Source: Chloroflexota bacterium (GTDB taxonomy: Bacteria > Chloroflexota > Limnocylindria > QHBO01). Taken from it: a stretch of 63,336 nt of DNA. Both the position numbers and the translations under genes were made by a program. Location: positions 1 to 63,336 of the forward strand of contig JBDTNK010000003.1 of NCBI GenBank assembly GCA_039933775.1, in the 5' to 3' direction. The number at the start of each line of letters is the position of its first letter. Positions within the stretch are counted from its first letter, which is position 1. Positions 4,182 through 54,303 of the stretch are shown here, piece after piece. Below the pieces are notes generated by a model, which saw nothing but the letters and a program-made list of their open reading frames with translations, made no database searches and had not been told where the DNA came from.

Positions 4182-5645
4182 ATGACGGCGGGGGGAACCG
4201 CGGCGCCGCAGACGCCGGCCGATCGCATCGATAGCTCACGATCCGACCTGGCGGTCGGCATCGTTCGTCTGGTGATCGGGCGGGCGCTGAGCGTCGTGCT
4301 CAACTTCCTGGGGTGGGCCTTCATGGCGCGCGCCCTGGGTCCTGACGACTTCGGGATCGTGCAGTTCGGCATCTCGATCATGTTCTACGTCAGCTTCGTG
4401 ACCGATCTGGGTCTCACGACGCTCGGCACGCGCGATGTCGCCGCCAGCTCCCGCCCCGGGCAGCTGGTCCGCACGATCATGGGGCTGCGCATCGTGCTGG
4501 CGGTGGTTGCCACGCTCATCGCCGTCCTGGTGTCCGTGGCCGCGCCGGTACCGCCGCAGATCGCCGACGACGTGCGCCTCGTCGGACTGATCCTGAGCTC
4601 GACGATCGCGGCAGGCGCGATCAACGGCCTGTGGCTCCTCCGCGCGCAGGGGCGGGCCAGCGCCATCGCGCTGCAGGACGTTGCGGCGGCCTTCGTGCTC
4701 GTGGCCGGCGCCGTCCTGCTCGTTCGGCCCACCGACAGTGTGGCGCTGGCGGCGGCCACGTTCGCAGGGGCCCAATGGCTCGCGGCGCTGCTCAGCCTGC
4801 GCTCGGTGGGCGGGTGGCTGACGCTACAGCCGTCGCTCGACAATGCCGGCGCGATCCTGCGCCGCGCCCTGCCGCTGGGCGTCGCGGCACTGGCCGTGAA
4901 CGTCTACTACACCGCCGACACGGTCCTGCTCGGCATCCTGCGCGACAGCACCGAGGTCGGCCTGTACGGCGCGGCATACCGCCTCGTGACGCCCTGGCTG
5001 ATGCTCGCATCGGTCGCCGGGCTCCTCGCCATGCCCACCCTCGCGCGCCTCGTCGAGCAGCGCTCGTCGGACGTGGAGCGGACGCTCCTTGGCCTCTCGC
5101 GCGGCCTGCTGGCGCTGGGGATCCCGATCGCCGCTGCGACCACGATCGCCGCGCCGCAGGTGCTGCAGATCGTCTTCGGGCCGGCGTACGCGGATGCGGC
5201 GGCCCCGCTGGCGCTGCTCATCTGGAGCACCGTGACCGTCTATGCCAACGCCCCGTTTGGCTTTCTGCTCCTGGCGCGGCACGAGGATCGGCGCTACATG
5301 TGGATCGCGATCGTCGGTGCGGTGGTGAACCTGGGCATGAACGCGGTCCTGATTCCGACCATCGGCATGATCGGCGCGGCGACGGCAACACTGGGGGCCG
5401 AAGTCGCCGTCCTTGGATGCATGCTGTGGTTCACGCGCGATGTCTCCGTTGCCATCTTGCGCAGCAGCCTGCCGCCGGCACTGCTGCTCGCCGCGCTCAC
5501 ATCGGTCGCCGTGTGGCCGGTGCGCGACAGCGGCTGGGTCATTCCGGTTGGCGCTGCGGCGTTCCTGATCGGCGGGACCGTCTTGGGCGTGTTGCCAGCA
5601 CGCACCGTCATGGGCGCGCTGCGGCGCCCGGTGCATCGGTCCTGA
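4182..5645 (+). CDS. wzx: Wzx-type oligosaccharide flippase
   Basis: 487 aa multi-TM. ARALGPDDFG, DTVLLG...EVGLYGAAYRL and NLGMNAVLIPTIGMIGAA MOP-family motifs. Confidence 0.85.
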   Translation: MTAGGTAAPQTPADRIDSSRSDLAVGIVRLVIGRALSVVLNFLGWAFMARALGPDDFGIVQFGISIMFYVSFVTDLGLTTLGTRDVAASSRPGQLVRTIMGLRIVLAVVATLIAVLVSVAAPVPPQIADDVRLVGLILSSTIAAGAINGLWLLRAQGRASAIALQDVAAAFVLVAGAVLLVRPTDSVALAAATFAGAQWLAALLSLRSVGGWLTLQPSLDNAGAILRRALPLGVAALAVNVYYTADTVLLGILRDSTEVGLYGAAYRLVTPWLMLASVAGLLAMPTLARLVEQRSSDVERTLLGLSRGLLALGIPIAAATTIAAPQVLQIVFGPAYADAAAPLALLIWSTVTVYANAPFGFLLLARHEDRRYMWIAIVGAVVNLGMNAVLIPTIGMIGAATATLGAEVAVLGCMLWFTRDVSVAILRSSLPPALLLAALTSVAVWPVRDSGWVIPVGAAAFLIGGTVLGVLPARTVMGALRRPVHRS

Positions 5646-5703
5646 TGGGTGGGAGGCTGCGCTACCCTGTGAGCGCAACCCGGCCAGTGGAGGGGCGAAC
5701 CGC

Positions 5704-6177
5704 GTGAAAACCAGGCGCCGCGCGCAGTGCCGCATCGCCCTCGTCGGAAGCAGTGGCGGCCACCTCGCCCATCTCCTCGCGCTGCGTCCGTTCTGGGAGG
5801 AGCGCGATCGCTTCTGGGTCACCTTCGACACGCCCGATGCCCAGTCGCTGCTCGAGGGCGAACGACACTACTGGTCGCACCACCCGACGAACCGCCACGT
5901 GCTCAACCTCGTCCGCAACACGTTCCAGGCCGTGCAGATCCTCCTCCGGGAGCGACCATCGCTCATCGTTTCGGCCGGTGCCGCGACGGCGATCCCCTAC
6001 TTCTGGCTGGCGCGCGTCTTCGGCGCACGGACCGTCTTCATCGAGGTGCTGGACCGGCTCGACTCACCCACGATCACAGGCCGCGTCGTGGCCCCGGTGG
6101 CGCACACCATCTTGGTGCAGTGGACCGAGCAGCAGCGCTTCTATCCGCGCGCTCGGCTCGTCGGCCCCATCCTGTGA
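5704..6177 (+). CDS. pssD: PssD/Cps14F (Alg14-like) glycosyltransferase subunit
   Basis: ALVGSSGGHLAHL, WVTFDTPDA, PSLIVSAGAATAIP, TVFIEV, VQW..Q..FYP. Confidence 0.9.
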   Translation: MKTRRRAQCRIALVGSSGGHLAHLLALRPFWEERDRFWVTFDTPDAQSLLEGERHYWSHHPTNRHVLNLVRNTFQAVQILLRERPSLIVSAGAATAIPYFWLARVFGARTVFIEVLDRLDSPTITGRVVAPVAHTILVQWTEQQRFYPRARLVGPIL

Positions 6178-43122: not shown

Positions 43123-45279
43123 TCAGGCGCGACCGGCGGCCGCCTCGTCGGATCGACGACGACCGGCCAGCCGGATGAGGTCCTCGTGAAGCTCGAACCA
43201 CACCCCGTGATAGCTGTCGACGCGTGGCGACGCGACGAAGCGCTGGTCACCACCGCGGGCGAGCTCCAGCGCTCGCTCCAGCCGCGATGCGTACGTCGCG
43301 AATCGATGCAGAACGTCCGCCGTCGGCGAGAGCCATGCGGCGGTCTCCGCATGCAGGGCGGCGAGGTCGTCCAGGACCCCTGCGTCGTACGCCGCGTCGG
43401 CATGATCGTTGATGGCCTGCGCACCGGCCACCTCGCGCACCTGCCAGGCCGTGACGATCTGCTTCATGCGCGTATCGAATCGGTGGAAGGCTTCGAGCAG
43501 CGCAGCGCTGGCCTCGTCGCCGATCTGGGCTCGATCGGCGGCCATGAGATCGAGACCTCGCAGCTTGCCCTCCGCCGACAGCCGCAGCGACCCGTCCCTT
43601 GACTCGACCAGCGCCTCGGCCGACAGCGCCTCCACGACGCCCGCCAGGCCGTCCGGCGCGACGAGGCGCGACTCCGCGAGCTGCTCGGGCGTCGCCGCGC
43701 CCTTGATCAGGAGGCCGCGCAGCAGATCGTCTCGGGATGCCGTGCCTTCAAGCGGCAGAGCAGTGGGGCCCGCATCGGCGGGGGCGCTCGAATCGTCGGT
43801 GCGCTGCTCGACCCGCGGCTCGATCCCCAGCTCCTGCGCCCAGGCGAGCAGGATCGCCGCCTCCGGCGCCACCTCGTCGCTGCCCTCCAGCCGGCCGGCG
43901 AAGACCTCGCCGGTCGAGCCGTCGATCGTCAGCTCCTCGCCGGCCGCGATGACCGTGCCCTCGATCTCGACGCTGTCGACACCGGGCCGCACGCCGGCGG
44001 CGCCAACCACGGCGGGAATGCCCCAGCCGCGCGCCACGACGGCGGCATGGCTGGCCAGGCCGCCCCGCGCGGTGAGCACGCCGGCGGCGCGCGACATGCC
44101 GCGCACGTCGTCGGGCGATGTCTCGGATCGAACCAGGATGACCGACCGCCCGGATTCAGCTACCGTCTCGGCAGCGTCGGACGAGGTGGCGATCACGCCC
44201 GTTGCCACGCCCGGCGAGGCGGGCAGGCCGCGCGCCAGCGGGGCGGGGACGCCGAGCGCCCGAACGAAGATGCGCGGTGGATGGGCCAGGTGCGCCGCGA
44301 CGCGCTCGACCGCTTCGGCACGCGAGCAGGCCATGCTCGGATCATCGGCCATGTCGATCGCGATCCGCAGCGCGGCGCGCGGGCTGCGCTTCCCGGCACG
44401 CACCTGGAGCAGCCACAGCCGGCCCTCCTCGATCGTGAACTCGATGTCGCACAGGTCGGCCACGTGCTGCTCGAGCGTCGCCGCGTGACGGTGGAGCTCG
44501 GCGGCGACATCCGGCAGGCGCTGCTCGAGGACCGCGATCGGCTGCGGCTGCTGACCGCCGGCCACGACGTCCTCGCCCTGCGCATCGAACATCACGTCGC
44601 CGTACGGGGTCGGCTCACCGGTGGATGGGTTGCGCGTGAAGAGCACCCCCGTGCCGGAGTTCGCGCCACGGTTGCCGAAGACCATGGCCTGCACCGTCAC
44701 CGCAGTGCCCAGGTCGTCGCTAATCTGCTCGCGCCGCCGGTAGGCACGCGCCCGCTCGCTGTTCCACGAGCGGAAGACCGCCTCGATCGCCGCGCGCAGC
44801 TGCTGCCAGGGATCGTCGGGCAGCGCGTCGGTGCCGATCACCGTCCGATATCCCTCGCGCAGGCGCCGCAGACAGTCGTCGGCGAATGCCGCGTCGCCGG
44901 TGGCCGCGGCGAGACCGGCGACCGATGCCTGGCTCAGGCCCAGGTCCAGGATCGTGTCCATCATGCCGGGCATGGAGACCGCGGCCCCCGACCTGACACT
45001 CACGAGCAACGGATCCTCGGGGTCGCCGAACCGATGTCCGACGCGCTCGCCGAGCCGCTCGATATGGTCGCGCAGCTCGTCGTCGAGCCCATCGGGCCAT
45101 TGGCCTTCCAGGAAGTGCGTGCTGGCCACGGTGGTGATGGTGAAGCCGGGCGGCACCGGCAGGCGAAGCTCGTTGGCCATGACGGCCAGGTTCGCCCCTT
45201 TGCCGCCCAGGAGCCGGGTCAGCTCTGCGTGCGAAAGCTCCGGCGGTGCGTCGAAGTCGTAGACGTAGCGGTTCGACAT
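43123..45279 (-). CDS. PPDK-like protein: ATP-grasp + phospho-His domain, no PEP/pyruvate TIM barrel, fused non-PPDK C-terminal domain
   Basis: LLGGKGANL, VPPGFTITT, VSVRSGAAVSMPGMMDT, VQAMVFGN, DIEFT, RGGLASHAAVVARGWG. About 200-aa tail ending DSYHGVWFELHEDL. Confidence 0.9.
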   Translation of the reverse strand: MSNRYVYDFDAPPELSHAELTRLLGGKGANLAVMANELRLPVPPGFTITTVASTHFLEGQWPDGLDDELRDHIERLGERVGHRFGDPEDPLLVSVRSGAAVSMPGMMDTILDLGLSQASVAGLAAATGDAAFADDCLRRLREGYRTVIGTDALPDDPWQQLRAAIEAVFRSWNSERARAYRRREQISDDLGTAVTVQAMVFGNRGANSGTGVLFTRNPSTGEPTPYGDVMFDAQGEDVVAGGQQPQPIAVLEQRLPDVAAELHRHAATLEQHVADLCDIEFTIEEGRLWLLQVRAGKRSPRAALRIAIDMADDPSMACSRAEAVERVAAHLAHPPRIFVRALGVPAPLARGLPASPGVATGVIATSSDAAETVAESGRSVILVRSETSPDDVRGMSRAAGVLTARGGLASHAAVVARGWGIPAVVGAAGVRPGVDSVEIEGTVIAAGEELTIDGSTGEVFAGRLEGSDEVAPEAAILLAWAQELGIEPRVEQRTDDSSAPADAGPTALPLEGTASRDDLLRGLLIKGAATPEQLAESRLVAPDGLAGVVEALSAEALVESRDGSLRLSAEGKLRGLDLMAADRAQIGDEASAALLEAFHRFDTRMKQIVTAWQVREVAGAQAINDHADAAYDAGVLDDLAALHAETAAWLSPTADVLHRFATYASRLERALELARGGDQRFVASPRVDSYHGVWFELHEDLIRLAGRRRSDEAAAGRA

Positions 45280-45344
45280 GTGCGTCTCAGATCGAAGGTT
45301 CAGCGGGTTTCCCGCCATCGGCCGATGCGGCTATGCTCCAGTAT

Positions 45345-45358
45345 GATCGATGATCGAT
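45345..45358. promoter_or_regulatory. Tandem GATCGAT x2 overlapping -10 TATGAT in the divergent dikinase promoter (candidate operator)
   Basis: Contains TCGATGATCGAT. An 11/12 copy (TCGATAATCGAT, minus strand) lies at 54309-54320. Confidence 0.45.
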
Positions 45359-45370
45359 ACTTGGGAGGTC

Positions 45371-47170
45371 ATGGCATTGCCTGTCGCTGCGGATGAGCCG
45401 ATCCTGGGCAAATTCCTCGGGAGCGGCGACTTTCCGATCGAATGGGCGTCCGACCAGGAACGGCAGCTGTTCTGGGTCTTCGACGACCTGCACTGCCCGC
45501 ACCCACTGAGCCCGATGTTCTACGAGATCGGCGGCTGGTGGCTGACCTGCGATCACATGTTCCGCCGCTTCGGGACGCCGTTTGCGTGCGACTGGATCAC
45601 CAAAAACGTCAACGGCTACCTCTACACCGCCGCCGTGCCGGCCGACCCTGCCCGGCAGGTCGACGCGATGGAGTACGGCGCCCGCTACGGCGCCCGCGTC
45701 CCGCTCGACCCCGAATACGGCGAGCGCATGGGTGCGTACCTCGACGCGGTGCTGCCGGTCTACGGCCAGCACTTCGCGGAGTGGTGGCGGGATCGGCTCG
45801 TCCCCGAGATGCAGGCCAACTTCGCCTTCCTGGAGCAGCGCCTCGAGCGCCAGGACGAGCTGTCGCTCATGGATCTGGCCGTCCTGTTCGAGGATGCGAT
45901 CGACATCCACGATCGGCACTGGAAGATCCACTGGATGCTGAACTTCTCGCAGCTCTCGGCGACGCTCAACCTGCGCGCGGTCATGGAGAAGACCCGCGGC
46001 ACGGTCGACGATGCGCTGCTCGGCCGGCTGCAGAACTCGGCGAACGACCGCAACTGGGACTCGATCCGGGCGCTCTGGGAGATGAAGGAGGAGGCGAAGG
46101 CCGACGGCGACCTCGCGACGGCCTTCAGCCACGACACCGCGGCCGAGATCATCGCCGCGCTCAAGCGGACCGAGCGCGGGGATCGGTTCATTGGCGAGCG
46201 GATCAAGCCGTACCAGCAGGAGTTCGGCTGGCACGCGGTCTGGAGCCACGAGTTCGTCTTCCCCACGGTCTACGAGAAGATGGAGCAGGTCGTGGAGCTG
46301 GTCCGCGGCTATGTCGAGAGTGACTACGACTATCCCGCCACGATCGGTGCGCTGAAAACCGATATCGAGGCCGCCTCACGGGAGATCCTGGATGGCCTCG
46401 ACGGCGAGGCGCTCGAGGAGATGCGCGCGGCGAACGAGATCAACCTGCAGATGGCACCGCTCACGCCGGACCACCACTTCTACATCGACCAGGGAGCGAA
46501 CGCACATCTGCGGCTGGTGCTCATCGCCATCGGCCGCAAGCTGGTGGCGGGCAAGGTGCTGGACCAGGCCGACGACGTGCTGTTCCTGCGCTACAACGAG
46601 CTGCGCGCCGTCATGGGCGATCCCGACGCCATCGAGGCGCGCTCCGTCGTCGCGCAACGCCGCGAAGCGCGCGAGGCGGCGTATGCCTTCCGGCCACCGG
46701 CATGGATCGGGACGGCCACCGAGAGCCAGCTCGCCTTCCCGTACCTGGTGAACTGGGGATTTCCCGAAAAGTTCTATCGCAAGGACGCGGTCGCGGGCGT
46801 GGTGGAGGGCATCGGTGGCTCCCCCGGCGTGGTCGAGGGGATCGCACGAGTCGTCCTGCGCGAGGATGAGTTCGATGCCGTCCGCGCCGGCGACATCCTG
46901 GTCTGCCACATGACGAATCCAGCTTGGGTCGTGCTCTTCACGAAGATCGCAGGCCTCGTCACGAACGCCGGCGGCCTGACCGGACATCCCGCGGTGCTCA
47001 GCCGCGAATTCGGCATCCCCGCCGTGGTCGGCACGCAGGACGGGACGCAGCGCATCAGCACCGGCGATCGCGTGCGCGTGGACGGGGCGACCGGCAGGGT
47101 CGAGGTCCTCGAGGCTGCGGGGAAGCCCCGTAACGACCTGTTCACGGTTCAGCCGCGGGCCGAGGCATGA
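45371..47170 (+). CDS. PEP-utilising-enzyme family: acceptor-binding domain + C-terminal phospho-His swivel domain, no ATP-grasp (phenylphosphate synthase A / RPH-like)
   Basis: SD GGGAGG before ATG 45371. FWVFDDLHCPHPLSP, NVNGYLY, DHHFYIDQ, GGSPGVVEGIARVV, LVCHMTNPAW, AGGLTGHPAVLSREFGIPAVVG. Confidence 0.88.
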   Translation: MALPVAADEPILGKFLGSGDFPIEWASDQERQLFWVFDDLHCPHPLSPMFYEIGGWWLTCDHMFRRFGTPFACDWITKNVNGYLYTAAVPADPARQVDAMEYGARYGARVPLDPEYGERMGAYLDAVLPVYGQHFAEWWRDRLVPEMQANFAFLEQRLERQDELSLMDLAVLFEDAIDIHDRHWKIHWMLNFSQLSATLNLRAVMEKTRGTVDDALLGRLQNSANDRNWDSIRALWEMKEEAKADGDLATAFSHDTAAEIIAALKRTERGDRFIGERIKPYQQEFGWHAVWSHEFVFPTVYEKMEQVVELVRGYVESDYDYPATIGALKTDIEAASREILDGLDGEALEEMRAANEINLQMAPLTPDHHFYIDQGANAHLRLVLIAIGRKLVAGKVLDQADDVLFLRYNELRAVMGDPDAIEARSVVAQRREAREAAYAFRPPAWIGTATESQLAFPYLVNWGFPEKFYRKDAVAGVVEGIGGSPGVVEGIARVVLREDEFDAVRAGDILVCHMTNPAWVVLFTKIAGLVTNAGGLTGHPAVLSREFGIPAVVGTQDGTQRISTGDRVRVDGATGRVEVLEAAGKPRNDLFTVQPRAEA

Positions 47171-47457
47171 CGTACGTGGTCACCGCCACGTGGCGTGCCC
47201 GCGAAGGCGAAGCCGAGCGCGTTCGCGAGATCCTCGAGGTGCTCACGCCTCTCTGCCGCGCCGAGCCCGGCTGCCGCCAATACCAGGCCCACCAATCGCT
47301 CGACGACCCGCGGCTCTTCTTCCTCTACGAGCAGTACGACGACGAGGCCGCGTTCCAGGCGCACGCGCAGACCGACCACGTCGAACGCCATGTCCGCGGC
47401 GATGCCGTGCCGCGGCTGGAGCTGCGCGAGCGCGCGATCTTCACGACGTTCGAGTGA
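47167..47457 (+). CDS. Antibiotic-biosynthesis-monooxygenase (ABM) family protein
   Basis: CRAEPGCRQY, FFLYEQYDDEAAFQAHAQTDH. ATGA overlap. Confidence 0.88.
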   Translation: MTYVVTATWRAREGEAERVREILEVLTPLCRAEPGCRQYQAHQSLDDPRLFFLYEQYDDEAAFQAHAQTDHVERHVRGDAVPRLELRERAIFTTFE

Positions 47458-48128
47458 TGCCTGACCTCAAGCAGCCCGCGGCCCCGCTCCCACGCAGCGT
47501 CCTTAGCGCCCAGGTCAAGGACAGGATGCTGCAGTGGGTCCTGCAGGGAGAGCTGGCACCGGGAGCGCGCATCATCGAGACGCGCATCGCACGACAGCTC
47601 GGGACGAGCCAGGCGCCGGTGCGCGAGGCGCTGCGCGACCTCGCGACGCTGGGATTGGTCGAGATGCACCCGTTCCGCGGGGCGCGCGTCCGCGAGCCCG
47701 CGCCCGACGAGCTCATCGAGGCTATGGAGCTGCGCGGCGAGCTCGAGGCGATCGCCGCGCGAAGCGCGGTGCTACGCATCGACGACGCCGGCCTGGCACG
47801 GATGCATGAGCTGCTCGACGAGATGCGCGCGAGCGCCGCCCGTGGTGACGCCCATGCGCAGGCGCTCCGCAACTCCGAGTTCCACTCCTGCATCATCAGC
47901 GCCTCCGGCAATCGGACCCTCCAGCGCCTGTGGTCGATGCTCGAGCCGTTCGCGCGCACCTACCTGACCGCCACGCTGCCGGGGGCCGACCTGCACTGGC
48001 TGGCCGAGCGCCACGTGGCCATCCTCGACGCCTTCACGGCCCGTGACCCGGAGCGCGCCGCCGAGACGATGCGGCTGCACGCCCGCGAGGCGCAGCGGCA
48101 GGTGCTCGAGCCGGACGAGACGGCCTAG
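47457..48128 (+). CDS. GntR-family regulator (FCD/FadR C-terminal domain)
   Basis: GELAPGARIIETRIARQLGTSQAPVREAL, NSEFH, GNRTL, H.AILDA...RD...A..MR.H. TGATG overlap. Confidence 0.92.
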   Translation: MPDLKQPAAPLPRSVLSAQVKDRMLQWVLQGELAPGARIIETRIARQLGTSQAPVREALRDLATLGLVEMHPFRGARVREPAPDELIEAMELRGELEAIAARSAVLRIDDAGLARMHELLDEMRASAARGDAHAQALRNSEFHSCIISASGNRTLQRLWSMLEPFARTYLTATLPGADLHWLAERHVAILDAFTARDPERAAETMRLHAREAQRQVLEPDETA

Positions 48129-48136
48129 ACGCACCG

Positions 48137-49000
48137 ATGTTCGACTACGCGCGACCGAAAAGCCTGAACGAGACCTTCGCCCTGCTGCGGGAGATGCCCG
48201 ACGCCAGGCTCCTCAGCGGGGGAACCGACCTGCTGGTGAACCTGCGCGGGGGCCGGGCGGCGACGCCCCTGGTCATCGATCTCAAGCGGGTCGCCGATCT
48301 CGAGGCGGGCATCACCCAGCGCGAGGGCTGGTTGCGCGTCGGCGCCGGCACGGTCATGACCGATCTCGCCGCAGACGACCACGTTCGCGACCGCTTCCCG
48401 TCCCTGGTGGGAGCCGCTCTGGTGGTTGGCTCGGTCCAGATCCGCAATCGCGCCACGCTGGCGGGCAACGTGTGCAACGCCTCTCCCGCCGCCGACACGG
48501 CTCCCCCGCTGTTGATCCACGACGCCGTCGTCGAGCTTGCCGGCAGCGCGGGCCTGCGGCGCGTCGAGCTGAGCCAGTTCTTCCTGGGACCCGGCCGTAC
48601 CGCGCTCCAGCCCGGCGAGCTGGTTGCCGCGATCGAGCTGCCGATTCCCGGCGGGCCGCTCGGGACGGCGTTCGCGCGCATGACGCGCCGCCGCGGCGTC
48701 GACCTCGCCACGGTCAGCCTGTGCTGCTCCGTCTCGGCCACCGGCGTCACCAGATTCGCCTTTGGCGCCGTCGGCCCGCGGCCCTTCGGGGTGACCGATG
48801 ACACCGGCATCCTGGCCGACCCCGCCGGCGACCCGGCGCTGCAGGACGAGGCGCTGCGCCGCCTGACCGGCCACGCCAGCCCGCTCTCGAACGTGCGCGC
48901 CAGTCGCGAGTACCGCGAGGCGATGCTGCTGGTCCTCGGGCGTCGGGCGCTCGAAGCGGCCAGGCAACGGCTGCGGGAGGCGCACCTTGCCGGGACGTGA
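48137..49000 (+). CDS. Molybdenum hydroxylase FAD-binding subunit (CoxM/CutM-like)
   Basis: LSGGTDLL, VGSVQIRNRATLAGNVCNASPAAD, GELVAAI. Confidence 0.92.
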   Translation: MFDYARPKSLNETFALLREMPDARLLSGGTDLLVNLRGGRAATPLVIDLKRVADLEAGITQREGWLRVGAGTVMTDLAADDHVRDRFPSLVGAALVVGSVQIRNRATLAGNVCNASPAADTAPPLLIHDAVVELAGSAGLRRVELSQFFLGPGRTALQPGELVAAIELPIPGGPLGTAFARMTRRRGVDLATVSLCCSVSATGVTRFAFGAVGPRPFGVTDDTGILADPAGDPALQDEALRRLTGHASPLSNVRASREYREAMLLVLGRRALEAARQRLREAHLAGT

Positions 49001-49475
49001 GCTGCGTGTCGGGCTCGGCGTCAACGGCGAGCAACGCAACATCGAGGTGTCGGTGGAGCAGACGCTGCTCGAGGTGCTGCGCGACCAGGTCGGACTCACC
49101 GGAACCAAGGAATGTTGCGCCGTCGGCGAATGCGGCGCCTGCACCGTCATGCTCGACGGCCGCGCGGTTAACTCATGCCTGGTGCTGGCAGTCGAGGCCG
49201 ATGGCGCGCAGGTCACGACGATCGAGGGGCTGACAGCGCGTGACGGCCTGAGCCCGCTGCAGGATGCGTTCGTGAGGCATGGTGCCGTCCAATGCGGATT
49301 CTGCACGCCGGGAATGGTCGTCGCCGCGCACGCGCTGCTGACCACCACGCTGCGGCCGACGATGGCCGAGATTCGCGAGGGCCTGTCGGGGAATCTCTGC
49401 CGCTGCGGCTGCTACAACCAGATCTGCGACGCGGTGGCCGAGGTCGCCGGCCTCGTGGCCGCGCCCGCGCGATGA
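48987..49475 (+). CDS. Molybdenum hydroxylase 2x[2Fe-2S] subunit (CoxS-like)
   Basis: TGTKECCAVGECGACTV, VNSCL, QCGFCTPG, NLCRCGCY. Confidence 0.95.
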   Translation: MPGRELRVGLGVNGEQRNIEVSVEQTLLEVLRDQVGLTGTKECCAVGECGACTVMLDGRAVNSCLVLAVEADGAQVTTIEGLTARDGLSPLQDAFVRHGAVQCGFCTPGMVVAAHALLTTTLRPTMAEIREGLSGNLCRCGCYNQICDAVAEVAGLVAAPAR

Positions 49476-51715
49476 TCGGCAGTTCGGAGCGGCGCATCGG
49501 CGGCGCTGATCGCGCCAGCGGGGCGCAGCGCTACGTGGCCGACGTCCGGCTGGGCGGCGCGCTGCACGTCGCGCTGGTGCATCTCGATTGCGCACGCGCT
49601 CGCATCGGTCCCATCGATGCGACCGCCGCGCTGCTGGCGCCGGGCGTCGTCGCGGTGGTCACCGCACAGGATCTCCCGCAGCCCATGCCCCGCTTCGGGC
49701 CCACGTACGCGGACCGGCCGCTGCTGGCGGTGGATGAGACAAAGTTCCACGGCGAGCCGGTCGCCGCGGTGTTGGCCGAGACGCACGAAGCCGCCCGCGA
49801 GGCCGCGGCGCTGGTGCGGGTCGAGCACGAGCAGCTGCCCGCGGTGGTGAGCATCGGGCAGGCGCTCGACCCTGGCGCGCCGCTCGTCCGCGATCCGGCG
49901 CTGCGCGCTGCCGACGACCCGCTGCGGAACACGAACAGGCTGTCCGAGTGGCACTTCGGCTGGGGTGACGTGGATCGCGCTTCCGCCGATACGGTGATCG
50001 AGCACGTGTACGGCGCCGCATCGACGACGCATTTCGCGATCGAGCCGCACGGCTTCATGGCCGCGCCCGACGGTGACGGCGTCGCCATCTGGAGCTCGAT
50101 CCAGCATCCCTATGTCCTGCAGCGGCTGGTGGCGGCGACCATCGGCCTGCCGGTCGCGAAGGTGCGCGTCTTCGCGCCGGACCCGGGCGGCGGCTTCGGC
50201 GGCAAGCAACATGCCAAGTACGAGCCGCTCCTCGCCGTCCTGGCGCTGCGCATTGGCCGTCCGTTGCGCCTGGTGCTGACCCTGGAGGAGACGTTTCAAT
50301 CGGTCCGCTCGCCCACCTTCGAGATCGCGATGCGCACCGGGTTCCGCGATGACGGCACGATCACCTTCCAGGACATCGTCGTGGACGGCATGCTCGGCGC
50401 GTACGCGGACATCGGCTACCGGGTGGTCAGCAAGGCCGCGTACCTGGCCTGTGGCCCGTACCGCGTGCCGGACGCGCGCATCGAGGTCCGAGCGCTGCTC
50501 TCCCACACGCCACCGGCCACCGCCCTGCGCGGCTTCGGCAGCCCGCAGATGGCCTGGGCCTTCGAGTCGCAGATGGACGCGGCGGCGGCGCAGCTTGGCC
50601 TGGACCGGGTCGCGATCCGGCTCGGCAACCTTGCCCGACGGGGCGAGGCCATCGTGCGCGGCGCCGGGGACACCCCCGTTGACGGCGACTGGGCGCAGAC
50701 GGTGCAGCGGGCCGTCGCCTGGATCGGCTGGGACACGCCGCTCCCCGAGGGCCATGGTCGCGGGCTGGCGCTGGGCATCAAGTCGTCGGCGACGACGGGC
50801 GCCTCGTACGCCATCGTGCGGCTGCTCCACGACGGCAGCGCGACGGTGATGGCCGGCACCTCGGACATGGGACAGGGCGCTCGCACCGTGATCGCGCAGA
50901 TCGCCGCACAGGAGCTCGGGATCGGCACGGAGCGCGTCAACGTCGTCATGGGCGACACCGGCGCGGCGCCGTACGACATGCAGACGTCGGCCAGCCGCTC
51001 GACCGTCTTCATGGGCACCGCGGTGCTGAACGCCTGCAGCGAGATCAGGAAGAAGCTGCGGCAAATGGCCGCCGAGACATACCGCATGCCCGAAGCGACG
51101 CTCGAGCTCGACGGTGGCAGTGTGCGGCTGCCCGATGGCGCTCGTTCGTTTGTCGAGATCATGGCCGATACCTTCGGCCCGATGCTGGGCGAGGTGATCG
51201 GCATCGGGGAGCGGCGCGGCGCCCACATCCCGGGCCATCCGCTCGGCGGACACGCGGCCTTCTACGAGTTCAGCTGCACCGCATCGGAGGTATCGGTCGA
51301 TATCGAGACCGGCGAGGTCCAGCTCCTGCGCCACGTGACCGTCTCCGACGTCGGCAAGGCGCTCAACCCGACGCACGTCGCGATGCAGGATGAGGGCGCG
51401 GCGATGATGGGCATCGGCCAGACGCTGATGGAGCACCTGCTCTTCGACCCGCAGAGCGGCCGGATCGAGAACCTCGGGGCGCTCGACTATCGGATCCTGA
51501 CCACCAAGGACGTGCCGCTCGAGATGGCGTCGCTGACCGTTGAAAACGAGGATGGGCCCGGTCCGTACGGCTCGAAGGGGACCGGCGAGAGCGGCCTCCT
51601 CTCCACCGCACCCGCGATCGCATCTGCGATTCGCGACGCGACCGGCGTGGCGATCCGCGACCTTCCGATCACCCCCGAGCGCATCTGGGCGGCGTTGCAG
51701 TCAGCTCGTCGGTAG
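49472..51715 (+). CDS. Xanthine dehydrogenase-family molybdopterin-binding subunit (substrate unknown)
   Basis: IEPHG, GGGFGGK, ALRGFGSPQ, DMGQG, TSASRST, KGTGE (catalytic Glu). Confidence 0.93.
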   Translation: MIGSSERRIGGADRASGAQRYVADVRLGGALHVALVHLDCARARIGPIDATAALLAPGVVAVVTAQDLPQPMPRFGPTYADRPLLAVDETKFHGEPVAAVLAETHEAAREAAALVRVEHEQLPAVVSIGQALDPGAPLVRDPALRAADDPLRNTNRLSEWHFGWGDVDRASADTVIEHVYGAASTTHFAIEPHGFMAAPDGDGVAIWSSIQHPYVLQRLVAATIGLPVAKVRVFAPDPGGGFGGKQHAKYEPLLAVLALRIGRPLRLVLTLEETFQSVRSPTFEIAMRTGFRDDGTITFQDIVVDGMLGAYADIGYRVVSKAAYLACGPYRVPDARIEVRALLSHTPPATALRGFGSPQMAWAFESQMDAAAAQLGLDRVAIRLGNLARRGEAIVRGAGDTPVDGDWAQTVQRAVAWIGWDTPLPEGHGRGLALGIKSSATTGASYAIVRLLHDGSATVMAGTSDMGQGARTVIAQIAAQELGIGTERVNVVMGDTGAAPYDMQTSASRSTVFMGTAVLNACSEIRKKLRQMAAETYRMPEATLELDGGSVRLPDGARSFVEIMADTFGPMLGEVIGIGERRGAHIPGHPLGGHAAFYEFSCTASEVSVDIETGEVQLLRHVTVSDVGKALNPTHVAMQDEGAAMMGIGQTLMEHLLFDPQSGRIENLGALDYRILTTKDVPLEMASLTVENEDGPGPYGSKGTGESGLLSTAPAIASAIRDATGVAIRDLPITPERIWAALQSARR

Positions 51716-52594
51716 GGCCGGCAGCGGCGTCGGGACCCGACGTCGAGCTTCGAAGCGCAGGTACTCGGTGTAACCCGCGCGCCGCGCAGCCGCCACGACG
51801 ACCTCGTAGCCGAGCGCCGCGTCGTCCGCCACGTGGGCGTCGCTGGCGAGCGTGATCGGCACCCCGGCCGCACGGAACCGCGCCAGGAAGCTCGGCGCGG
51901 GGTAGAGGCGCTGGACCCGGTGCCGCAGCCCGGCGCTCGACACCTCGATCGCCGTCCCACTTCGCGCAGCTGCCGCGACCACCGGACCGTACAGGTGGCC
52001 GAGGTCCCCGCCGGGCTGCAGCGCGTGGCGGGCAATGACGTCGGCGTGGGCCAGCACATCCACGAGCCCCGATCCGGCGAGCGCCGCCTCGAGCTCGAAG
52101 TACTGCGCGAAGGCCCGCTCGGTGCCCCGGCGCTCGTACTCGGCCCGGGCGCTGTCGCGCATGAAGTTCCAGGCACCGATCCAGTGGATCGAGCCGACGA
52201 GGTAGTCGAACGGGATGCCGGCCAGCAGGTCGAGCACCGCGACCTCGGTGCCGGGCACGAAATCGACCTCGAGGCCGAGCTTGACGGGCAGGCCGCGTGC
52301 CTTCGCGTCCAGCACGACCTCCACGTAGCGCGCCAGCGACAGGTTCCGCTCCGTGCCGATCCAGGCTGCCAGGTCCGCTCGAAGCCGCGCGTCGGGGTCG
52401 CGCTCCCACCATCGACCAAGAACCGGGATCGACTCGCGGCACCGATAGAGGTGCTCGGTGAAGCCGAGCTCGGTCACGCCGCGCGCCGCCGCCGCCTCCA
52501 TGTATCGGTCGATCCAACCATCGGGGTAGACCCCCATCGGTGGCGCGCCGGGCACCGGGCGGTGGGGATGGAGGTGAAGGTGGTAGTCGCTCAT
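51701..52594 (-). CDS. PHP-domain phosphatase, HisJ (histidinol-phosphatase) family
   Basis: DYHLH, GFTEH, GLEVDF, DYLVGSIHW, LAH.D, EVSSAGLR, TLASDAH. Confidence 0.88.
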   Translation of the reverse strand: MSDYHLHLHPHRPVPGAPPMGVYPDGWIDRYMEAAAARGVTELGFTEHLYRCRESIPVLGRWWERDPDARLRADLAAWIGTERNLSLARYVEVVLDAKARGLPVKLGLEVDFVPGTEVAVLDLLAGIPFDYLVGSIHWIGAWNFMRDSARAEYERRGTERAFAQYFELEAALAGSGLVDVLAHADVIARHALQPGGDLGHLYGPVVAAAARSGTAIEVSSAGLRHRVQRLYPAPSFLARFRAAGVPITLASDAHVADDAALGYEVVVAAARRAGYTEYLRFEARRRVPTPLPALPTS

Positions 52595-52625
52595 CGGTCC
52601 GTCCGCCAAGCTGAAACGGCCGCGA

Positions 52626-53492
52626 TCAACGAAAGCTGGCGCTGAGCCTGTCCCAGAGCGCGCCCGCGTTGTGCTTCTGGATGTATCCCATCATGTACTC
52701 CTGGCCGATGTCCACCGGGAAGCGCTCGGCGAAGTTGACGCGCTCGATGGTCTCATCGCGCGACCAGCCCTTCGCCACGGCATAGGCCACCGCGGAGGTC
52801 CACTCGAGCAGGACCGCCTTCTGCGTGGCGAGATAGCTCGTGGTCGTCACCGGCCCGTGCCCCGGGATGACGTGGTCCACGTCCAGCGCCGCGATGCGGT
52901 CGAGCGTCGCCAGCCACTGGTCGACATCCGAGCTCATGAGCCACGTCTGGACGTCGGAGAAGACGGTGTCGCCGGTCAGGACGACGCGCTCCTCGGGGAT
53001 ATGAACCGCCACCTGCCCCGGCGTGTGTCCCGGCGTGTGCAGCAGGTGAAAGGTGTGCTCGCCCACGTGCAGGGTCAGGTCGCCGCTGAACACGATCTGG
53101 CCGCGGTTCGGATCGGCCTCGTAGATCGCGCGGTCGGGGAAGATGTCCTGCCCGTCGGGGTCGTCGGTCGGCATCGCCTCGGCGGCGTAGGCGAACGGGT
53201 CCAGGATGGGGCCCACGACCATGAAGTTGTCGGCCACGCCCTGGTGGTGCACCACCCGACCCGCGCCCTTGAAGTAGTAATTGCCGAAGATGTGGTCGAC
53301 GTGGTGCTCGGTGTTCACGACGTAGCGGATCGGGCCATACGACTCCGCCTCGTGGCGCATCGCGACGGCTTTGGTCGGCAGCTGCGGCGTGTCGATCACC
53401 ACCACTCCGTCGGCGGTCGTGACGTAGCTCGGATTGCAGCCCCGGATCGTGGTGTCGGTGCGTACGTTGCTCGTGACGAGCTGCGTGCCCAC
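52626..53492 (-). CDS. Metallo-beta-lactamase-fold hydrolase (cyclase-like)
   Basis: VIDTP, NTEHHVDHIFGN, TPGHT, LTGD, IPGHG. Confidence 0.88.
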   Translation of the reverse strand: MGTQLVTSNVRTDTTIRGCNPSYVTTADGVVVIDTPQLPTKAVAMRHEAESYGPIRYVVNTEHHVDHIFGNYYFKGAGRVVHHQGVADNFMVVGPILDPFAYAAEAMPTDDPDGQDIFPDRAIYEADPNRGQIVFSGDLTLHVGEHTFHLLHTPGHTPGQVAVHIPEERVVLTGDTVFSDVQTWLMSSDVDQWLATLDRIAALDVDHVIPGHGPVTTTSYLATQKAVLLEWTSAVAYAVAKGWSRDETIERVNFAERFPVDIGQEYMMGYIQKHNAGALWDRLSASFR

Positions 53493-53505
53493 GCTCAGCG
53501 AGCCG

Positions 53506-54303
53506 TCACTGCGTCGCGGTCAGGCCGCCGTCGATGGTCAGGATCTGACCGGTGACGAAGGACGATGCATCCGAGCAGAAGAAGAGCACCGCGCCGACGA
53601 GATCGTCAGGGTCGGCGATCCGCCCGATCGGGATGCGGGCCAGCAGCCCCCTCTTGAAGTCCTCGTCCGCGAGGAGGGTCGCCACCTGTGGCGTCGCGAC
53701 GAAGGTGGGTGCGATGGCATTGACGGTGATCCCGTGATGCGCCCACTCGGTGGCCTGCTGGCGCATCAGCGCGTTGATCGCTCCCTTGGCTGCCACGTAG
53801 GCCGAGAAGCCCTGGTTGATGCCGAGCTGGCCGCGCACCGACGAGATGTGCAGCACGCGCCCGCCGCGTCCCCCGGTGATCATGGCGCGCGCCGCGGCCT
53901 GCGTCGGCAGCAGATCGCTGCGCAGGTTCAGGTCGAGGATGCGGTCCCACTCGGCCTCGGGATAGGACTCGGCCGGGTAGAGCGCGCCGCCCGCGCCACC
54001 ACCCACGGCATTCACGATGATGTCGATGCGGCCGAAGCGGGTCATCGCCTCGTCGATCGCGGCATCGACCGCGTCGTGCTTCGTGACGTCGACCGAGAGG
54101 AGGAGCGCCTGGGAGCCGAGGCGTTCGACGGCCTCCGCCAGGTCGACCTTGTCCGCGGCCGATCGACCCAGGACGACCACGTTCGCGCCGGCGCCGGCCA
54201 GGGCCAGCGAGATGCGTCGCCCGATGCCGCCGGCGCCGCCCGAGACGACCGCCACGCGGCCATCGAGGCGGAAGCGGGTCAGCTCATCGGTGGGGGCCGT
54301 CAT
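53506..54303 (-). CDS. SDR oxidoreductase (gluconate 5-/2-deoxy-gluconate 3-dehydrogenase-like)
   Basis: FRLDGRVAVVSGGAGGIG, GRIDIIVNA, ISSVRG, AYVAAKG (YxxxK), VNAIAPTF.T, RIPIGR. Confidence 0.9.
   Translation of the reverse strand: MTAPTDELTRFRLDGRVAVVSGGAGGIGRRISLALAGAGANVVVLGRSAADKVDLAEAVERLGSQALLLSVDVTKHDAVDAAIDEAMTRFGRIDIIVNAVGGGAGGALYPAESYPEAEWDRILDLNLRSDLLPTQAAARAMITGGRGGRVLHISSVRGQLGINQGFSAYVAAKGAINALMRQQATEWAHHGITVNAIAPTFVATPQVATLLADEDFKRGLLARIPIGRIADPDDLVGAVLFFCSDASSFVTGQILTIDGGLTATQ

Follow-up and report, generated by a model that had tools for sequence, protein, structure and literature searches.

The stretch of DNA analysed here (hereafter, the window) comprises 63,336 nucleotides of contig JBDTNK010000003.1 from a Chloroflexota bacterium (GTDB lineage Limnocylindria; QHBO01), whose assembly (GCA_039933775.1) spans 2.29 Mb in 125 contigs and is 87% complete; the genome is that of a soil bacterium, and close relatives of its proteins carry the label Candidatus Limnocylindria. 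At positions 43123-47170 of the window lies a divergent gene pair, gene A (P0001; 43123-45318, minus strand) and gene B (P0002; 45350-47170, plus strand), both with reading frames that are open throughout and translate into 731 and 606 amino acids (aa), respectively. As judged from sequence, gene A encodes a VadK-type truncated pyruvate, phosphate dikinase (PPDK) fused with a small partner protein, here called the A_C module, and gene B encodes an acceptor subunit, similar to rifampin phosphotransferase (RPH) and PpsA, that has its own swivel domain and no ATP-grasp. An initial annotation of the window had already read the two genes as complementary halves of a candidate new ATP-driven phosphotransferase for small molecules. 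In the current study, the functional pairing of A and B was found to be strongly supported by comparative genomics, and we consider it likely that the two proteins work together as one dikinase. For the full chain, in which phosphate would travel from ATP to His424 of A, then to His546 of B, and on to a substrate, we regard the case for and the case against the complete route, His-to-His relay included, as evenly balanced.

When gene A was searched against Pfam, PPDK_N (E 2.7e-46) was recognized in three stretches, together with a single PEP-utilizers swivel domain (E 1.1e-22), and no other family was matched. The three stretches make up a PPDK-type ATP-grasp (44284-45261, minus strand; residues ~20-345), in which the motifs GGK, VSVRSGA..SMPGMMDT, D-IEFT, and Q-R-GK were invariant or nearly so in 45 sequences; the catalytic motifs of the grasp are intact, and in a fold search the grasp was 35-40% identical to solved PPDKs. 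PF02896 (PEP-utilizers_C), the pyruvate/phosphoenolpyruvate (PEP) barrel, was absent from gene A, and in this genome PEP-utilizers_C was found only in a full-length 936-aa PPDK on contig C5 and in PtsI on contig C10. Against the NCBIfam models, gene A passed NF004531/PRK05878, the model for the mycobacterial truncated 'PPDK' family to which VadK belongs (500.2 bits over residues 35-496, with a cut-off of 456), but failed the full PPDK model TIGR01828 (524.8 bits, with a cut-off of 843.45). Sequence comparison showed that its first ~500 residues were 44-54% identical to full-length Chloroflexota PPDKs, and in a fold search the same portion was 31-40% identical to solved PPDKs and superposed on the PPDK of C. 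symbiosum; the root-mean-square deviation from 1jde was 3.3 Å over 537 columns. Orthologs of A were 52-67% identical to it over residues 14-731. The start of gene A is probably Met14 (45279), because the orthologs align from residue 14-18.

The swivel (PEP-utilizers mobile) domain of A occupies 43828-44241 (minus strand), with PF00391 at residues 392-470. Codon 44047-44049 (minus strand) read CAT and encodes His424, within GGLASHAAVVARGWGIP / GGLASHAAVVARG, as the initial annotation had claimed when it assigned A the ATP-grasp and phospho-His of a PPDK and denied it a pyruvate barrel. Both His424 and the adjoining Ser423 were invariant in 43/43 orthologs, and His424 was nearly invariant across the wider family; at the position of the PPDK regulatory Thr (-2 from His424), Ala was found in 41/43 orthologs. 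In Mycobacterium tuberculosis, the truncated PPDK VadK (Rv1127c) autophosphorylates on His422 in a reaction that depends on ATP and Mg (Pascoe et al., PMC13400623), and its operon partner Rv1126c improves the solubility of VadK upon co-expression, with 2 M NaCl washes having been used to separate the two (PMC13400623). The VadK His motif, GAASHAAVVSREL, as taken from a primer given in that paper, likewise has Ala at the regulatory Thr position. In a phylogenetic tree, full-length PPDKs formed one clade (support 100/99) and the A_C-fused truncated forms formed another (99/96). The idea that A arose recently and locally by truncation of the PPDK of this genome was rejected, because all of the full-length PPDKs form a clade of their own, apart from the truncated forms. 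In G289, a relative assembled into two contigs, A seems to be split at C1:2558366-2560535: one frame, of 624 aa, encodes the grasp and swivel, and another, of 344 aa, encodes A_C. The cause may be a frameshift in the assembly, or the two parts may truly be unfused in this member of Limnocylindria.

A variable linker (43738-43827, minus strand) joins the swivel to A_C. It was delimited by conservation and by the predicted local distance difference test (pLDDT) of an AlphaFold2 (AF2) model; pLDDT fell below 50 at model residues 492-507 (residues 505-520 of P0001), where there was no conservation, and the linker is probably disordered. A_C itself (43126-43737, minus strand; residues ~528-731) is a conserved module of ~200 aa that sits in A where PPDK has its pyruvate barrel. 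On its own it matched nothing in local copies of Pfam (even at E<=10) or NCBIfam. An AF2 model built from 43 orthologs (pLDDT 95.7; predicted template modelling score, pTM, 0.91) predicted a winged helix and, after it, a long helical bundle that includes a beta-hairpin. Its invariant motifs, D..K...T..Q.R (WQ.R), N.H.D...D (NDH.D..YD), and ASPRVDS.H..WFELHE (ASPRVDSYH..WFELHE), lie mostly in the helical bundle, for which sequence-profile searches of the PDB and Foldseek searches returned no solved relative. A profile search with A_C recovered 1856 representative clusters, 443 of them at E<=1e-30, whose members were either stand-alone proteins of ~200 aa or the C-terminal part of longer ones; among 32 long members, 28 contained a swivel and 23 contained PPDK_N as well. 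By BLASTP, A_C shared 38% identity (E 1e-41) with a Mycolicibacterium protein of 201 aa that stands alone and whose gene adjoins that of a truncated PPDK, and tblastn coverage showed that it also matches a 200-aa gene that follows a truncated PPDK in M. branderi. We take A_C to belong to the Rv1126c partner family, the comparison having been made with these stand-alone Mycolicibacterium and M. branderi homologs. In current annotation, the module appears as 'pyruvate, phosphate dikinase', 'MarR family regulator', or 'hypothetical protein'.

The sole structural or sequence similarity of A_C, as seen in the PDB profile and Foldseek searches, was to winged-helix regulators of the MarR/MntR/DtxR type (E ~0.02 and confined to the winged-helix part), and NCBI annotates the stand-alone M. 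branderi gene as 'MarR family transcriptional regulator'; moreover, a palindrome lies in the intergenic region between A and B. A_C might thus bind DNA through its winged helix, and A might regulate transcription from the divergent promoter under the control of phosphorylation. We regard this as highly improbable. The matches were weak (E ~0.005-0.02 over 60-110 residues) and covered only the N-terminal third, whereas the invariant residues belong to the helical bundle and not to the winged helix. In addition, the cluster already has a dedicated GntR regulator, A_C is also found fused to B-type and to AMP-binding enzymes, and at many loci A stands at the far end of a co-directional operon where there is no divergent promoter. 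Also arguing against a DNA-binding role, 2 M NaCl was needed to remove Rv1126c during purification of VadK (PMC13400623).

In gene B, Pfam recognized a C-terminal PEP-utilizers domain alone (E 2.5e-24), and the precomputed Pfam labels on B relatives were PF27448 (Rph_4th) and PF00391. Residues 388-588 of B matched residues 681-867 of Listeria rifampin phosphotransferase in the PDB. The NCBIfam matches were weak, being to the PRK08296 families (residues 35-588; 174 bits, with a cut-off of 578) and to RedH/PigC (RedH, 222-588); against the RPH, RedH, and PigC models, B scored 58-134 bits and failed the cut-offs of 999-1350. The NCBIfam matches, the motifs, and the PF27448 label on relatives together delimit a putative substrate-binding region that resembles the 'rifampin-binding' part of RPH (45395-46789, plus strand), in which HWKIHW and PLTPDHHFYIDQG were invariant across orthologs of 51-81% identity. 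The swivel domain follows at 46793-47113 (plus strand), with PF00391 at residues 512-582. Codon 46985-46987 read CAT and encodes His546, within AGGLTGHPAVLSREFGIP / AGGLTGHPAVLSRE; this His was invariant in an 11-sequence alignment (A1), and B has Thr at -2 from it. The initial annotation's description of B as an acceptor domain with a phospho-His of its own and no ATP-grasp was thus borne out, as was its view that A and B complement each other while both retain a His. The start of B is probably Met8 (45371), which is preceded by a GGGAGG ribosome site and for which the gene caller's product is 599 aa; with Met14 as the likely start of A, a divergent intergenic region of ~90 bp is left. Near relatives of B (75-91% identity) numbered in the hundreds in soil and freshwater metagenomes.

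A second RPH/PEP-synthase-like gene was seen on contig C98 of G000 (4389-5720, minus strand), with 444 aa visible and a C-terminal swivel before the contig end cuts it. As a free source of ATP-grasp for B this partial gene was rejected; its homolog in the relative G006 is a complete single-chain enzyme with an ATP-grasp and swivel of its own.

Among 61 relatives, full-length B orthologs (65-84% identity) were found in 11 genomes. Every one of the ten B-carrying relatives that were re-searched had a full-length A ortholog, A_C included, and ten relatives without a B ortholog had only ordinary PPDK. When an even sample of 401 Chloroflexota genomes was examined, a B ortholog was present in 31, and A was also present in 15/15 of the Limnocylindria-type ones; nine sampled genomes without A (seven lacking B, and two with the grasp-only gene described below) were also without A_C. 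A scan of related loci, restricted to one genome per species, yielded 80 loci with B at 67-81% identity. A lay in the same cluster as B at 61 of these, and the remaining 19 all ended at a contig edge inside the cluster, so that A accompanied B at 61/61 informative loci. Co-occurrence across genomes, which the initial annotation had set beforehand as a test capable of refuting its reading, was therefore found both among the genomes and among the loci. Three arrangements of the cluster were seen: the divergent A and B of the window; a co-directional series, B-GntR-X414-XdhM-XdhS-XdhL-(cyclase-ADH)-A, in which ADH is alcohol dehydrogenase; and A-XdhLSM-TAL divergent from B. Its core always consisted of B, the GntR regulator, XdhMSL, and A, with a hydrolase of the metallo-beta-lactamase (MBL) fold and an SDR.

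B orthologs of 50-62% identity were also found in three other Chloroflexota families, where A and A_C were entirely lacking. Within a few kb of these distant orthologs, and directly after B in one genome (G067), lay a gene of ~300 aa that matched PPDK_N end to end and contained no swivel. Two-component dikinases such as HpeHI, CreHI, and PpsAB consist of a grasp-only subunit and an RPH-like substrate domain with a swivel His (Dexter et al., PMC12167813), and by its domain content the ~300-aa gene is a classical subunit of the PpsB/CreI/HpeI type. The loci of this grasp-only type also kept the GntR regulator and a different enzyme of the xanthine dehydrogenase (XDH) family (31-37% identity). 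A grasp-only gene was found neither in this genome nor in G006 and G289, two relatives that are 95% complete in two contigs and in which PPDK_N was confined to A, the genuine PPDK, and, for G006, the single-chain RPH-like enzyme; the existence of such a separate partner for B was another outcome that the initial annotation had named as fatal to its proposal. A thus takes the place held by the grasp-only donor in sister lineages. No other evidence speaks as strongly as this partner swap, read from gene content, for A being the donor that passes ATP-derived phosphate to B.

The A/B set of parts recurs in mycobacteria, Rhodococcus, and proteobacteria. An operon of Mycolicibacterium sp. XJ1819 contained a B-type gene (532 aa), a gene for a 315-aa protein, an A_C gene (201 aa), and a gene for a truncated PPDK of 488 aa with 46% identity to A, and plasmids of Diaphorobacter and M. 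branderi carried B, A_C, and truncated PPDK as a triad of separate genes. Fused forms were also recovered. In one assembly (L156), a B-A_C fusion was followed by a truncated PPDK, and on a metagenome contig (L157) a single chain of 1256 aa was composed of Rph_4th, swivel, PPDK_N, swivel, and A_C, so that both swivels were kept; on another metagenome contig (L158), an A-type gene adjoined a B-type gene. In a further Chloroflexota genome (G405), a B-like protein was encoded directly upstream of an A-like protein 42% identical to A, with no hydroxylase nearby, and the acceptor domain of that B-like protein was unrelated to B at BLAST level. It is scarcely credible that A and B are functionally unrelated and adjacent by chance, given their co-occurrence, a clustering kept in three arrangements, and multiple independent fusions.

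A protein of 300-340 aa was seen to accompany the triad (L154:7042-7989, L157:3753-4736, L159:6371-7285, and L160:10930-11946). The triad-associated proteins of this size from Mycolicibacterium, the metagenome contig, Diaphorobacter, and M. branderi shared 22-24% mutual identity, and PF23213/DUF7064 was recognized on two of them.

Directly downstream of B in the window lies a GntR/FCD-family regulator (47430-48128, plus strand; Pfam GntR and FCD), which follows B in most related loci, the distant Chloroflexota included. It is followed by an XDH-family molybdenum hydroxylase of three subunits (48137-51715, plus strand), namely an FAD subunit (48137-49000; FAD_binding_5/CO_deh_flav_C), a 2Fe-2S subunit (48987-49475; Fer2_2), and a Mo subunit (~49472-51715; Ald_Xan_dh_C/MoCoBD_1/2), all on the plus strand and all assigned by Pfam. 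The hydroxylase was clustered with A and B in essentially all related loci, and it scored below every NCBIfam equivalog cut-off, those for xanthine dehydrogenase, 4-hydroxybenzoyl-CoA reductase, glyceraldehyde dehydrogenase, and CO dehydrogenase. Whereas the initial annotation was right to see two complementary proteins, it missed both A_C as a third module and this conserved molybdenum-hydroxylase cluster. On the minus strand, Pfam and NCBIfam identified a set of conserved accessory genes (51701-54285): a PHP-family phosphoesterase (51701-52609), an MBL-fold hydrolase (52626-53492), and an SDR (53506-54285). The MBL and SDR genes accompany the cluster in most loci, and PHP is confined to the window-type arrangement. 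The PHP gene scored just under the cut-off of the NCBIfam histidinol-phosphatase subfamily (197.8 vs 202 bits), and it may serve the pathway as a phosphatase or be no more than hisJ.

Between A and B, in the divergent promoter region, is an operator-like palindrome, GTATGATCGATGATCGATAC (45341-45360), which was seen in the window and in the G006 locus. At several related loci, the near-palindromic TATCGAT-N-ATCGATA recurred, placed either upstream of B or in the gap that separates A from B; those with the palindrome upstream of B were L074, L078, L080, L082, L083, L086, and L092, mostly in the divergent arrangement. The palindrome is a candidate operator, perhaps for the GntR/FCD regulator of the cluster. 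A gene of the transaldolase/FSA family adjoined B in most related clusters (L055-L058 and L074-L153); it scored well under the transaldolase cut-offs and is missing from the window. Also missing from the window, and from G006, is X414, a conserved protein of ~300 aa encoded between GntR and XdhM (L055:11241-12251, minus strand, and ~53 related loci). X414 matched neither Pfam (even at E<=10) nor NCBIfam, but it contains an invariant Walker-A-like GGESNHGKS and gave a faint match to the P-loop region of PEP carboxykinase (E 0.13). Because B keeps Thr at -2 from its His, X414 might regulate a swivel Thr in the manner of HprK/PDRP. The notion that X414 and the 315-aa PF23213/DUF7064-type protein of Mycolicibacterium are a common fourth component was discarded when BLASTP showed no similarity between them.

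The initial annotation had also argued from the lack of UbiD-type genes nearby that the acceptor is probably not phenol. No UbiD-family gene was found anywhere in the 87%-complete assembly. Phenol carboxylation by the phenylphosphate route is therefore unlikely, and so is phenylphosphate synthase proper as an identity for A and B, the family scores also being far below cut-off.

In the mechanism that we propose, the PPDK-type ATP-grasp of A would bind ATP and phosphorylate its own His424, by analogy with VadK, the sole experimental case. The flexibly tethered A_C would act as a docking or dimerisation element that replaces the lost barrel and holds A on its partner; such an anchoring role is suggested by the position of A_C, where the barrel was, by its flexible tether, and by its occurrence elsewhere as a protein of its own or, in some cases, as a fusion to B. 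The phosphoryl group would then pass from His424 of A to His546 in the swivel of B, and both swivels may be needed, because both were retained in the single-chain (1256-aa) form. In the phosphotransferase system, transfer from His to His out of a homologous swivel domain is established between enzyme I and HPr. The His-to-His relay would be a plausible and reasonable mechanism, and the passage from His424 to His546 is the weak step of the proposal. Finally, the B swivel would deliver the phosphate to a hydroxyl, of enol or phenol type, on a substrate held in the RPH-like pocket. The phosphorylated compound would lie in the pathway to which the co-encoded XDH-family molybdenum hydroxylase belongs, and the neighbouring PHP or MBL-fold phosphoesterase would later remove the phosphate. 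Such late removal would resemble the Cre pathway, in which phosphate is a temporary protecting group. The substrate is probably a hydroxylated N-heterocycle or an aromatic compound, because of the gene context (hydroxylase, SDR, and MBL in the window, and a cyclase-family hydrolase, a zinc-type ADH, and a transaldolase-family gene in relatives) and because of an analogy with the 3hpd cluster of Ensifer adhaerens HP1, which is compared below.

Several observations weigh against this scheme. One set concerns the weak step. The swivel sequence of B was nearly identical in the lineages that have a grasp-only partner, and no precedent was found for transfer from one swivel to another. Direct transfer from grasp to swivel His has been described for the two-component dikinases, and it is the published mechanism of all that have been characterised (PMC12167813). 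The ATP-grasp of A might likewise (pyro)phosphorylate His546 of B directly, as PpsB, CreI, and HpeI do for their partners, leaving His424 and A_C to serve a separate purpose, such as self-priming, regulation, provision of a second acceptor, or keeping the complex assembled. With distant Chloroflexota B orthologs pairing with a grasp-only partner while bearing nearly the swivel of the window B, direct charging is a serious rival that this near-identity somewhat favours. All things considered, we nevertheless judge it unlikely. His424 is invariant in all 43 orthologs and was kept even where B, grasp, and A_C are one chain; an intramolecular swivel would compete with the B swivel for the same grasp site; and proteins of the VadK type autophosphorylate on the swivel His.

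Other observations concern the partners of A. The A_C/truncated PPDK module is not exclusive to B-type partners, given that it also occurs beside AMP-binding (adenylate-forming) enzymes or with A_C fused to them. Loci of this kind were seen on plasmids of Rhodococcus sp. ZPP (L161) and Rhodococcus sp. LW-XY12 (L162) and on a metagenome contig (L155). They often hold a gene of the histidine-phosphatase family, and L161 and L155 were without a B-type gene within 5-6 kb. The AMP-binding enzymes are a possible second type of partner, and the module may have partners of more than one type, or a regulatory role. VadK, moreover, has been described as a post-transcriptional regulator of the methylcitrate cycle that interacts with the enzymes of that cycle, with no B-type acceptor or partner being named (PMC13400623). 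A might accordingly be a histidine kinase like VadK, responding to ATP or energy state and regulating B, the hydroxylase, or other proteins through phosphorylation or binding, in which case B would receive phosphate from another donor or only shuttle it between phospho-metabolites. The latter would be in keeping with the ability of HpeH alone to move phosphate between phenolic compounds. We think a purely regulatory A distinctly improbable, less so than the DNA-binding model but more so than direct charging. No ATP-grasp partner for B apart from A was found in the near-complete genomes; A is present in exactly those lineages from which the grasp-only gene is missing, in its stead; and the covalent fusion of B, grasp, swivel, and A_C resembles one enzyme and not a regulator joined to its target.

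Two further points tell against the proposal in its full form. The AF2 model of A at full length, though confident at the level of single residues, had a pTM of 0.67. The link of A and B to the hydroxylase, for its part, rests on gene order and on one published analogy that is itself mechanistically unexplained.

On a wider view, the VadK-type truncated PPDK and the Rv1126c-type module might form a portable unit that converts ATP into phospho-His and charges grasp-less, RPH-like swivel proteins in Chloroflexota, Actinomycetota, and Pseudomonadota, by passing phosphate from its swivel His to a second swivel His. We put this forward tentatively, and lean slightly towards doubting it. If it is true, small-molecule kinases would have their first internal phosphorelay from His to His, mycobacterial VadK would be a catalytic donor subunit, or the descendant of one, and not only a regulator, and phosphorylation would be a common priming step for molybdenum-hydroxylase/oxygenase pathways that act on hydroxylated (hetero)aromatics. 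If A and B work as proposed, they would represent a third architecture in the PEP-synthase/PPDK/RPH dikinase superfamily, with two mobile phospho-His carriers in series and an adaptor, and would give the VadK family, which has recently been tied to tuberculosis virulence and has no known phosphoryl acceptor, a concrete biochemical partner. The pair may also help to explain why a dikinase pair is required in the molybdenum-hydroxylase-dependent degradation of 3-hydroxypyridine. Moreover, better annotation would correct reconstructions of central metabolism that count these genes as PPDK.

When A and B were compared with characterised systems, likenesses were found to several of them. In common with the acceptors of HpeHI, CreHI, and PpsAB, B has an RPH-like substrate domain and a C-terminal swivel His; ATP binding likewise falls to a second polypeptide, and the genes co-occur and are clustered in catabolic clusters. 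However, whereas the partner in those systems is a grasp-only protein of ~40 kDa with a PEP-synthase-like motif and no swivel His, A is of PPDK type, has its own invariant His424, and carries A_C in addition. B also differs from HpeH, CreH, PpsA, and RPH in having Thr, in place of Met, at -2 from the His (PMC12167813). Characteristic of the two-component class is also the conversion of ATP to AMP + Pi, the beta-phosphate going to a phenolic or enolic hydroxyl. RPH and PigC/RedH resemble A and B in that an ATP-grasp, a substrate domain, and a swivel His are all present, but they do so with one chain and one His, where A and B have two chains, two His residues, a PPDK-type grasp, and the added A_C. 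Unlike canonical PPDK, A is without the PEP/pyruvate TIM barrel, scores below TIGR01828, and falls in a separate clade from the real PPDK of the genome.

Ensifer adhaerens HP1 offers a likeness of another kind. Its 3hpd cluster contains the 3-hydroxypyridine dehydrogenase HpdA1-4 together with orf9 (PPDK-like) and orf10 (a PEP-utilizing protein); both orf9 and orf10 were genetically required for the step of the 3-hydroxypyridine hydroxylase, and no intermediate was found (bioRxiv 10.1101/2020.01.08.898148). As judged from the published description of its genes, the 3hpd cluster shares with the window an XDH-family molybdenum hydroxylase, a GntR regulator, and a PPDK-like/PEP-utilizing pair in one cluster. 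HpdA has a separate SRPBCC subunit (HpdA3) with a signal peptide; neither an SRPBCC subunit nor the maleamate-pathway genes hpdBCDE turned up in Pfam scans of the neighbouring reading frames, although no search was aimed at them.

A also resembles VadK, with which it shares the ATP-grasp and swivel, the lack of a barrel, and Ala at the regulatory Thr position. VadK has a partner of ~200 aa, Rv1126c, encoded alongside, and the putative counterpart of that partner here is fused to the C-terminus of A; and A differs from VadK in sitting with a B-type acceptor and a molybdenum hydroxylase and not with methylcitrate genes. In the literature, we found no description of a donor subunit with its own swivel His, of A_C as part of a dikinase, or of the three-way fusions. 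The novelty claimed in the initial annotation therefore stands in so far as no description of A and B as a unit was found, and gives way in so far as HpeHI/CreHI/PpsAB, VadK, and the 3hpd cluster are partial precedents. A and B are a variant of the known two-component dikinases, widespread and mis-annotated, which combines a donor of the VadK type, bearing its own His, with a module of the Rv1126c type.

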